DNA from: a virus
Strand: one strand, 5' to 3'
Length of the DNA stretch: 12,148 nt
IMG/VR virus record: IMGVR_UViG_3300035501_000268
Both the position numbers and the translations under genes were made by a program. The notes under the pieces are model-generated. The model saw nothing but the letters and a program-made list of their open reading frames with translations, searched no databases and had not been told where the DNA came from. Positions 1,000 through 2,055 of this stretch are shown piece by piece (the first letter of the stretch is position 1; each line of letters begins with the position of its first letter).

Positions 1000-1037
1000 T
1001 TTGCTAGAGTGGCAGAATCGGGATATGCAGCGGACTT

Positions 1038-1921
1038 TTTGGAATACACAAGGACAATTAAACGACGACTATGCCAATACAAAAGGATGTGAAAACTAAA
1101 TGCCTATAATTGCTAAATGGCGCTTACTGCCAGAAGAAGAATTTGCACGCTTGGAAAAAGAAAGTAGGTCTTTTTAGGAATTAGCATAGAAAATTGGTTA
1201 TGTTAAAACCGGGGGAGGAACTCAAACTTCCTTAAAACAGGCTGTCCAAGAAAGAAACCTTGATACAAGTCATTTTTTAGGAAATTCTTGGAACAAAGAA
1301 AATTATGATTATTCTTCTTTTGAAAAAAATTCCATAAAAAAGAATGGAAAAACAACTCTAAATCCTCTCGTGAAATTGCGTGGAAGAAAATGTGAAAATT
1401 GTGGAATTACAGAATGGCTTGGTCAACCAATTAATTTAGAAATACATCATATTAATGGAGACAGAAGCGATAATTCACTTAATAATCTTATGATTTTATG
1501 TCCTAATTGTCATTCCTATACATCAAACTTCCGTCGTCGAAAAGATAAATATATAACAGTTAAAGATGAAGATTTTGTTTTTGCTCTTCAACAGTGTCAA
1601 AATATTGCATAGGCTTTAAGACTTTTAGGATTATCGCCAACTGGTGGTAATTATACAAGAGCAAGAGAATTAATTGAAAAGCATCATTTAACACATTTGT
1701 ATTCCTAATAGAGCCATAAGATAGGAAACTTCTTATGGGATGTGCGCTAATTCGGCGAAACTCTCTTAGAGACAACGCCGAGCTAAATTTTTAGAATAAT
1801 CTAAAATAAATGTGTAGAGACTATATACGCACCTCCTAAATTTTGTAAAAAATATGGAGAAGACATAGTCCAGACTACAACAGCTTTTGTCCGGCTGGCT
1901 ATGGCGACATAGAGTAGTACG
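1038..1921 (+). mobile_element. group I intron (~884 nt) in tRNA-Leu(UAA), carrying an HNH homing-endonuclease ORF in a 5' peripheral loop; catalytic core lies 3' of the ORF
   Basis: 5' splice site follows a U (U34). Last intron nucleotide is G1921 (omega-G). Conserved core elements: P AATTCGGCGAAA (1749-1760), Q AACGCCGAGC (1774-1783) with TCGGCG/CGCCGA forming P4, R ...GAGACTATA... (1815-1829), S AAGACATAGTCC (1860-1871) with GACTA/TAGTC forming P7. P1/IGS was not resolved by eye. Confidence 0.75.
1100..1708 (+). CDS. intron-encoded HNH homing endonuclease, 202 aa; three in-frame TAG codons (1175-1177, 1187-1189, 1610-1612) that must be read through
   Basis: RBS AAAGGA; ATG 1100 is preceded by an in-frame TAA. 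The three segments MPIIAKWRLLPEEEFARLEKESRSF, ELA, and KIGYVKTGGGTQTSLKQAVQERNLDTSHF...CENCG...HHINGDRSDNSLNNLMILCPNCHS...QNIA (HNH motif) are separated by in-frame TAGs; after the third TAG the frame continues ALRLLGLSPTGGNYTRARELIEKHHLTHLYS to TAA 1706-1708. The sequence after each TAG retains classic HNH-HE helix-turn-helix repeats (LGxxxxGGxxxxxxxxIxxxxLDTSHF), showing TAG is decoded as sense. The track's ORF 1370-1612 is only the central piece. Confidence 0.85.
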
Positions 1922-2055
1922 AAAATCCGCCGCCGAAAGGATTAGGGGTTCGAATCCCCTCTCTAGCACCAAACCATAACTTTTATCGTAAAAAATGGAG
2001 GAATGACCGAAATGAACAAATTCGCCGTTTTCTAACATAAGGAGGTTAGAAAACC

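Follow-up and report, generated by a model that had tools for sequence, protein, structure and literature searches.

A tRNA-Leu(UAA) gene interrupted at the anticodon

The subject of this analysis is a tRNA-Leu(UAA) gene that is split by a long insert at positions 1003–1971 of a stretch of viral DNA of 12,148 nucleotides (IMG/VR record IMGVR_UViG_3300035501_000268). The whole stretch is called the window, and all positions refer to it unless a contig is named. A reading made from the letters alone (the sequence-only reading) had proposed that the insert is a group I intron with an HNH homing-endonuclease gene, placed at the same site as the tRNA-Leu intron of cyanobacteria and plastids. The gene is composed of three parts:

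1003–1037 (+): 5′ exon of tRNA-Leu(UAA), with the acceptor 5′ strand, D arm, anticodon stem 5′ strand, C32, U33 and U34
1038–1921 (+): group I intron of 884 nt, with a compact IC3-like core, an open reading frame (ORF) in loop L1 and the 3′-terminal G1921; the assignment rests on the Rfam match and covariation, the boundaries on the tRNA loop and the terminal G
1922–1971 (+): 3′ exon of tRNA-Leu(UAA), with A35, A36, A37 and A38, anticodon stem 3′ strand, variable arm, T arm, acceptor 3′ strand, A73 and an encoded CCA

The two acceptor halves, GCTAGAG at 1003–1009 and CTCTAGC at 1961–1967, are mutually complementary over all 7 bp, and the second is followed by A1968 and CCA (1969–1971). When the exons were joined at 1037/1922, ARAGORN found a tRNA-Leu(UAA) of 85 nt that has the cloverleaf, the long variable arm, A73 and the anticodon UAA of a type II tRNA-Leu, with the CCA encoded and a T loop of TTCGAAT. 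The predicted junction of the ligated exons reads GGGATATGCAGCGGACTT on the 5′ side and AAAATCCGCCGCCGAAAGG on the 3′ side, the latter extending to AAAATCCGCCGCCG when more of the exon is written out. Eighty junction combinations were tried, and 1037/1922 was the only one that gave both a 7-nt anticodon loop and an intron-final G; the intron is therefore placed at 1038–1921, between U34 and A35. Position 34/35 is the classic site of the tRNA-Leu(UAA) intron in a 2026 survey of complete bacterial genomes (PMC13011429). The sequence-only reading was thus borne out as regards the split at U34/A35, the perfect acceptor halves, the type II variable arm with A73, the identity of the site, and the expectation that a tRNA finder would recognize the computationally spliced sequence.

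In the unspliced window ARAGORN reported just a tRNA(CUA) at 787–860 and a tRNA-Gly(UCC) at 2396–2472, and the Rfam tRNA models were likewise blind to the tRNA-Leu gene unless it was spliced. Standard tRNA finders overlook split genes of this kind, and phage tRNA repertoires are under-counted as a result. A tRNA with the anticodon UAA is plausibly useful to the phage, since TTA and TTG together make up 54% of the Leu codons in the window.

The insert folds as a compact group I ribozyme

The Rfam group I intron model (Intron_gpI, RF00028) matched 1694–1892 with 58.9 bits (E 4e-13) over the full model (1–253), against a curated gathering score of 50 bits. The structural elements are:

1035–1048 (+): P1 5′ strand, composed of exon CUU (1035–1037), intron UUU and GGAAUACA (1041–1048); splice site after U1037
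1698–1713 (+): P1 3′ strand and internal guide sequence, with G1711-A1712-G1713 opposite exon U1037-U1036-C1035
1714–1738 (+): P2 hairpin (1714–1721/1731–1738), read from the sequence; all members of the family described below have hairpins at the same place
1742–1870 (+): catalytic core, with P3 (1742–1746/1828–1832), P4 (1751–1757/1776–1782), P5 (1762–1765/1769–1772), P6 (1789–1793/1802–1806) and P7 (1819–1824/1865–1870), the last forming a pseudoknot with P3
1833–1836/1856–1859 and 1840–1843/1850–1853 (+): P8, within the catalytic core
1874–1921 (+): 3′ domain, with a closing helix (1874–1878/1914–1918, P9.0-like), P9 (1881–1885/1894–1897), a further hairpin (1899–1903/1908–1912) and G1921

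In P1, the exon bases CUU followed by UUUGGAAUACA (1035–1048) pair with UGUAUUCCUAAUAGAG (1698–1713), with a calculated energy of −10.8 kcal/mol. The duplex includes a U1037-G1711 wobble, and an 8-bp extension of P1 closes the loop that holds the ORF. A U-G wobble in P1 is a mark of the group I 5′ splice site. Family members whose ORF likewise sits in L1 build a P1 helix of this kind from differing sequences, and the guide motif GAGC/GAGU is common to the entire phage intron family and to bacterial tRNA-Leu introns. The guide sequence was located by anchoring on the P4 motif; a choice by duplex energy was misled by repeated GAG triplets. The core has neither P5abc nor P7.1/P7.2, the gap from P7 to the 3′ strand of P3 is only 3 nt, P5 is a simple hairpin and the closing helix is of the P9.0 type. 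This is the compact IC3 architecture of bacterial tRNA introns, and the similarity to introns classed as IC3 in PMC13011429 is 50–63% over 200 columns. The 3′-domain motif AGUCCAGACUACAAC...GAGUAGUAMG is invariant across the phage intron family. The sequence-only reading had recognized elements P, Q, R and S at 1749–1871 and an intron that starts after a U and ends with a G. P4 and P7 were found where it had put them, the U is the U1037 of the wobble with G1711, the terminal base is G1921, and the Rfam search that it had suggested gave a match above the gathering score.

Covariation was assessed by scoring an alignment of 11 diverged family cores against the structure, including the P3/P7 pseudoknot. 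Base pairs were formed in 96.6% of the cells versus 81% in shuffled alignments and 30–42% in controls with slid pairing partners. Compensatory changes, with both sides altered, occurred in 24 of 49 pairs, and none of 500 shuffles reached the observed values. The pseudoknot itself covaries (two covarying pairs in P7 and five in P3), and the window sequence fits the structure common to the 11 aligned members. The pattern indicates that the ribozyme fold is under selection. Chance is excluded as an explanation by the E-value of the covariance model together with the recurrence of the same architecture in many independent contigs. In its gathering mode, Rfam run on a 47-kb batch missed a 58.1-bit intron (positions 748–941 of contig L002) that was recovered with an E-value threshold. 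Filter-based negatives for AT-rich phage introns are for this reason unreliable, and those obtained in gathering mode were re-checked by motif searches.

An HNH endonuclease gene lies in the P1 loop

The intron contains one long reading frame:

1100–1708 (+): HNH homing-endonuclease ORF of 202 codons, with in-frame TAG at 1175, 1187 and 1610 and the stop TAA at 1706–1708

The ORF is situated entirely inside the P1 loop and outside the catalytic core, with its stop codon falling within the P1 3′ strand. The sequence-only reading had placed it in a 5′ peripheral loop, which can now be specified as the loop closed by 1035–1048 and 1698–1713. Pfam scored HNH_3 at 26.6 bits (cut-off 24.8) and HNH at 23.8 bits (cut-off 21.4), and the match to PHROG 10822 (HNH endonuclease) was 2e-40. 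The motif CENCG...EIHHINGD...N..LCPNCH, with the CxxC cysteines for zinc binding, is intact in the window and conserved in the family alignment. Among solved structures there were just weak matches to the HNH domains of IscB and McrA, none of them close. The protein belongs to a subtype with a helix-rich C-terminal tail. It is 59–64% identical to ORFs at the same position in three other viral contigs (L002–L004; 59% over residues 1–200 for the L002 intron ORF), and the homologues align over their full length.

The endonuclease is written in a code with TAG as sense codon

As the sequence-only reading had pointed out, the three in-frame TAGs mean that translation of the ORF requires amber read-through. 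A candidate for the decoding tRNA lies 140 nt upstream of the tRNA-Leu gene:

787–860 (+): amber-suppressor tRNA(CUA), anticodon CUA according to ARAGORN, Rfam tRNA score 50.7 bits

This tRNA presumably supplies the read-through for the intron ORF. It has a U1×C72 mismatch, G2-C71, G3-C70 and G73, a combination that we take to resemble the Gln identity set of GlnRS; aligning it with phage tRNA-Gln(UUG) genes gave no further information.

Calling ORFs anew with TAG as sense altered just two genes in the window, the HNH ORF and a GIY-YIG gene at 6151–6792. The internal stops of these two endonuclease ORFs are all TAG (7/7), with no TAA, TGA or frameshift. Given the background frequencies of the three stop triplets in the window, such an outcome has a probability of about 1e-5, and the other called genes contain no internal stops. 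In-frame TAG in otherwise intact genes is thus combined with a phage-encoded CUA suppressor, as in recoded phages. Of the six TAG sites in the family alignment, three lie in columns where Q is the majority residue, and one of these is among the three sites of the window.

Other members of the intron family carry ORFs with only TAG or only TGA, in agreement with the code of their own phage. The intron ORFs accordingly read as genes written in the code of their phage rather than as decayed ones. In the intron of contig L037 an HNH ORF (intron positions 93–653) occupies the P6 loop and contains three TGAs in frame. Two of them fall on an invariant W, which suggests a TGA-to-Trp recoded phage with the same intron family. 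In L003 (2533–2621) and L004 (2528–2616) the CUA suppressors beside the split tRNA-Leu are 89-nt type II tRNAs with a Ser-, Leu- or Tyr-like shape, and the single TAG in the intron HNH of these contigs aligns with a Y/R/E-type column; TAG may not stand for Gln in these phages.

Recoded intron endonuclease genes have been described in phages by Borges et al. (10.1101/2021.08.26.457843), who proposed for the Agate case that recoding delays the endonuclease until late infection. The Agate gene shares the in-frame reassigned stops with the window ORF, and differs in that TGA is read as W and the intron sits in an early protein-coding gene, whereas the window has TAG in the intron of a tRNA gene. 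By inference, the logic of a late-infection delay may extend to the HNH ORF of the window. Endonuclease genes in the altered code of the phage (TAG or TGA as sense) would tie the expression of a selfish element to the code switch.

A family of introns in phage tRNA(UAA) genes

The IMG/VR contigs L002–L004, found via the HNH protein, show the same order as the window, i.e. ...ACGGACTT, HNH ORF, group I core, ...GAGTAGTAAG and, after the splice junction, AAAATCCGT.... The 3′ junction ATAGAGTAGTAMG/AAAATCCG (the slash marks the splice site) was present in 19 viral contigs, in 70 contigs of metagenomes from the human gut and from apparent rumen assemblies, and in 3 of 185,579 species genomes, all three on short contigs of metagenome-assembled genomes. 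The exon bases AAAAUCCG belonged to the search pattern. After reconstruction, 59 distinct introns in 57 distinct tRNA(UAA) genes were obtained. By length they comprise 27 introns of 201–413 nt, which lack an ORF, a single intron of 509 nt and 31 of 715–1087 nt; a recognizable HNH motif was seen in 28 of 33 long introns, with the window counted. The ORF is in L1 in the window, L030, L031, L033, L039 and L044, and in the P6 loop in L035, L037, L038 and L041. The phage introns form one clade with 66–84% identity over 200 core columns.

In L029, L035, L041, L044 and L046 the split host with anticodon UAA is a type I tRNA of 76–77 nt. Such a short variable loop is unusual for a bacterial-type tRNA-Leu; type I tRNA(UAA) genes of this sort are common in uninterrupted form in other viral contigs (L064–L079). 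A tRNA(UAA)-like sequence at 228–345 (+) of L060 has intact acceptor, D and T arms and a CTTAAAA loop, with about 47 extra bases between the D arm and the anticodon stem; it was not called by ARAGORN. The insert could be a short intervening sequence similar to the 'enigmatic' introns of Lak phages (see below), or the sequence could be a pseudogene.

A related intron was seen in Prevotella phage Lak-B1 (MK250020.1, 412034–412312; locus L080, 2348–2626 plus the 3′ exon). Here the CUA suppressor tRNA is split between positions 35 and 36 by an intron of 245 nt, whose R and S elements and 3′ end (...AGTCCAGACTACAAA...GTAGTACG) resemble those of the phage intron family, and the joined exons fold as tRNA(CUA). 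The intron is not detected by Rfam at E≤0.01 and is absent from the Lak tRNA introns of Devoto et al. If the assignment is true, the tRNA that enables Lak recoding is itself interrupted by an intron.

Searches with the window itself returned little. The exact tRNA-Leu 3′ exon had no match in the viral contigs, megablast of the entire window against a set of 50,697 deposited phages gave no match, and distant blastn of the intron core against INPHARED yielded no intron, just intact tRNA-Leu 3′ exons. With a consensus-like member of the family as query, the matches in INPHARED were limited to Lak-B phages.

Occupied and empty sites

Among homologous tRNA genes the intron is present or absent at the same site. 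L085, L088, L090, L091 and L094 contain an uninterrupted tRNA-Leu(UAA) of 85 nt that is identical to the spliced product of the window at 73 of 85 positions and shares with it the unusual form of the D and variable arms. The type I tRNA(UAA) is uninterrupted in 16 viral contigs (L064–L079), and one of these, L076, equals the exons of L044 and L046 over 44 nt at the site. L044, whose 875-nt intron has the ORF, and L046, whose 226-nt intron lacks it, are identical in their exons, the difference being the ORF. By these comparisons intron-less, ORF-less and ORF-bearing alleles appear to coexist, as expected for a homing intron.

Relation to known introns

Over 200 core columns, three of the four phage introns tabulated are 50–52% identical to the Nostoc tRNA-Leu intron (58% for L044), and the identity of the phage clade is 57% with a tRNA-Leu intron of Acidobacteriota and 58% with a tRNA-Asn intron of Bacillota_A. 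In a neighbour-joining tree, a crude one with a single cyanobacterial Leu sequence and with bacterial sequences taken from the supplement of PMC13011429, the phage introns stand apart and do not group with Nostoc. The insertion site is shared with the cyanobacterial intron, with no sign of a specific phylogenetic affinity to it; identity of site does not show shared descent, and the phage clade is 52% identical to Nostoc versus 57–58% to some other bacterial tRNA introns. A 3′ domain of the form AGUCCAGACYACAA...GUGGUAMG is common to the phage introns and to many bacterial 34/35 introns in tRNA-Leu, tRNA-Lys and tRNA-Arg. On this sequence comparison the element belongs to the broad IC3-like group of tRNA introns and appears to lack a specific tie to the cyanobacterial/plastid intron. 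The suggestion of the sequence-only reading that the element bears on the debate over mobility and origin of the tRNA-Leu intron has to be tempered accordingly, and the bearing on the cyanobacterial/plastid origin is indirect.

The intron of Nostoc PCC 7120 (249 nt, IC3) interrupts the same gene at the same U34/A35 point, has a compact core of the self-splicing type and, like the window, forms P1 from exon CUU and a ...GAG guide sequence. The cyanobacterial/plastid intron has no ORF and is chromosomal or plastid-borne; the window intron has an HNH gene in L1 and is carried by a phage. The bacterial IC3 introns at 34/35 (in tRNA-Leu(UAA) of Acidobacteriota and Bacteroidota, and in tRNA-Lys and tRNA-Arg; PMC13011429) have a very similar P4 (AAUUCGGNGAAAC) and a 3′ domain that is much alike (agtccagaccacaaa...gaaagc...gtggtaMg/AAAATCC). 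They are chromosomal, and an endonuclease gene is present in just 12 of 333 bacterial tRNA introns in that survey, as compared to 31 of 59 introns at 715 nt or longer in the phage family. One of them, a Bacteroidota intron of 731 nt (GCF_021484805.1, IC3; PMC13011429, legend to Fig. 6 and Table S5), is in the same gene and site and has an HNH ORF right after the 5′ splice site; its HNH protein is 36% identical (E 2e-13) to that of phage intron L035. It is a single chromosomal case in the standard code, whereas the window intron is phage-borne, TAG-recoded and has another HNH subtype. The sequence-only reading had called a group I intron with a homing-endonuclease gene at this site of a phage tRNA gene unusual; an HNH-bearing tRNA-Leu 34/35 intron as such was already listed in 2026 with the Bacteroidota case, and the phage tRNA gene as host is what is unreported as far as found.

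Among phage group I introns with HNH endonucleases, I-PfoP3I (in cyanophage Pf-WMP3's gene for DNA polymerase) and the introns of T4, SPO1 and Bastille likewise have a homing-endonuclease gene looped out of the ribozyme. They interrupt protein-coding genes, with I-PfoP3I in group IA2, in contrast to the tRNA gene and the IC3-like core of the window. The review of Hausner et al. (2014) placed every phage intron known by then in protein-coding genes, although phages have many tRNA genes. The first phage tRNA introns were described, without classification, in Lak megaphages by Devoto et al. (2019). These 'enigmatic' introns are likewise in tRNA genes of alternatively coded gut phages; they measure 79–114 nt, have no Rfam hit, lie after position 37 in tRNA-Tyr, -Phe, -Thr and -Gly, and are not recognizable as group I. 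On account of their size and the other tRNAs that they interrupt, they were rejected as instances of the same element. The searchable full-text literature, whose reach excludes subscription-only papers, yielded no account of a group I intron in a phage tRNA gene. From its sequences the family represents a phage-borne, endonuclease-rich and code-adapted clade of anticodon-loop tRNA introns, with a host, the phage tRNA gene, that is unreported as far as we found.

Proposed mechanism and alternative explanations

Taken together, 1003–1971 is very probably a phage tRNA-Leu(UAA) gene that is split at 34/35 by an intact, mobile and compact IC3-like group I intron with an HNH gene; splicing, homing and the timing of translation are what we infer from the sequence. 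The precursor would fold with exon C1035-U1036-U1037 paired to G1713-A1712-G1711 in P1, after which free guanosine bound in P7 would attack after U1037. The freed exon would then attack after G1921, and ligation of the exons would yield the 85-nt tRNA-Leu, a reader of the codons UUA and UUG. It is probably the anticodon stem of the tRNA that aligns the exons, and not a P10 helix; a 1993 title in the reference list of PMC3984707 offers a parallel. The targets of the HNH endonuclease would be tRNA(UAA) genes without an intron in co-infecting phages, and repair of the cut would copy the intron in (homing). With three TAGs, the enzyme would be translated only when the CUA suppressor is active, and thus probably be confined to a recoded, late phase of infection.

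Several observations weigh against this interpretation. Just three exon bases are paired in P1, and a convincing P10 was not found in the window intron. Thirteen syntenic contigs were identified via a vault-like protein, and none has a tRNA-Leu at the same place; the window genome consequently offers no direct comparison with an empty site. The invariance of AAAAUCCG tells nothing about the target of the endonuclease, because these bases were in the search pattern. A possible ribosome-binding site (AGGA) is about 12 nt upstream of the ATG of the HNH ORF, which is a long spacing. Finally, two of the three TAGs in the window align with R/K/E/A-type columns and not with Q, and Gln is for that reason no more than a candidate for the amino acid inserted at TAG.

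The P1 pairing of three exon bases, along with the failure of ARAGORN and the Rfam tRNA models to see the unspliced gene, would also fit an inactive ribozyme and a split gene that is a dead tRNA-Leu pseudogene. We hold this to be most improbable: the wobble pair, the terminal G and every helix of the core are intact, the window sequence fits the covarying structure of 11 members, the exons are conserved relative to uninterrupted homologues, and an equally short exon pairing is found in the self-splicing Nostoc tRNA-Leu intron sequence (CUU/AA...UUGAG). A milder form of decay, in which the intron splices and is no longer mobile, with the HNH ORF a pseudogene and its TAGs nonsense codons, would account for three in-frame stops under the standard code, for the non-Q columns of two of them and for the loss of the ORF in many members (27 of 59 introns at 413 nt or shorter). 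It is very unlikely in view of the seven internal stops that are all TAG, the lack of frameshifts, the full-length alignment, the intact catalytic motif and the adjacent CUA suppressor; moreover, the TAG-only or TGA-only ORFs of other members match the code of their phage.

Two other explanations accept an active element and differ on its origin or role. The phage intron could be the direct sister or donor of the cyanobacterial/plastid tRNA-Leu intron, phages having seeded or exchanged the latter, as the same gene and 34/35 site, the compact IC3-like architecture and the UUGAG-type guide of ORF-less members might suggest. The guide sequence is constrained by the exon, however, and hence its similarity is not independent evidence; the identity to Nostoc is 50–52% (L044 58%) against 57–58% for other bacterial introns, the tree shows no grouping with Nostoc, and the hosts appear to be gut and rumen phages and not cyanophages. 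Direct kinship is therefore unlikely. The intron might also have been co-opted as a gate that delays maturation of tRNA-Leu(UAA), or couples it to the code switch, and so regulates phage translation. The tRNA cluster beside the suppressor tRNA, the related intron in the CUA suppressor of Lak-B1 and the use of UUA and UUG as the main Leu codons would be compatible with such a role, but the polymorphism for presence and absence and the frequent gain and loss of the ORF are the signature of a selfish element, and no sequence sign of regulated splicing was seen; we regard a gate as decidedly unlikely.

The interpretation as a mobile intron bears on an old question. The group I intron of tRNA-Leu(UAA) is the textbook example of an ancient intron, and the debate over its mobility has for the most part had no homing enzyme at hand that could be tested. 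A natural version at 34/35 that is equipped with an endonuclease, together with intron-less, ORF-less and ORF-bearing alleles, makes homing at this site directly testable. Beyond the locus itself, we tentatively suggest, as a possibility that goes well past the present data, that gut and rumen phages are a reservoir of anticodon-loop introns. These might home among co-infecting phages, move from one tRNA species to another (tRNA(UAA) of type I and of type II, the Lak CUA suppressor) and exchange introns and endonuclease genes with bacterial chromosomes. Phages could in that case be the missing vector for the patchy tRNA introns of bacteria, with the endonuclease gated by the code switch.

Genomic context of the window

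The window has a G+C content of 35%. The gap from the suppressor tRNA to the 5′ exon of the tRNA-Leu gene is taken up by a 37-codon ORF with a good ribosome-binding site (886–999, +), whose stop codon ends 3 nt short of the tRNA-Leu gene. Downstream of the split gene, 2604–4991 (+) encodes a protein of 796 amino acids that contains a vault repeat and the shoulder domain of the major vault protein (Pfam 1.5e-17); relatives with 52–68% identity are present in 13 large viral contigs, and there was no PHROG match. The GIY-YIG homing-endonuclease gene at 6151–6792 (+; Pfam 1.6e-08, PHROG 314 at 2e-27) has its TAGs at 6268, 6325, 6472 and 6688. A search of its surroundings at E≤1 gave no group I intron, and the gene appears to be free-standing. 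It is preceded by a short RlaP-like nucleotidyltransferase ORF (5315–5872, 185 amino acids), which may be truncated. Also near the tRNA genes, the region 7962–11988 (+) encodes an RNase T-like exonuclease, an RNA ligase (PHROG 968 at 2e-63), a metallophosphatase and a NADAR domain protein. This RNA-repair-like cluster may be a tRNA repair or anti-defence module, and the nearest cultured relatives of the RNA ligase (44% identity) are in Bacillus phages of about 165 kb.

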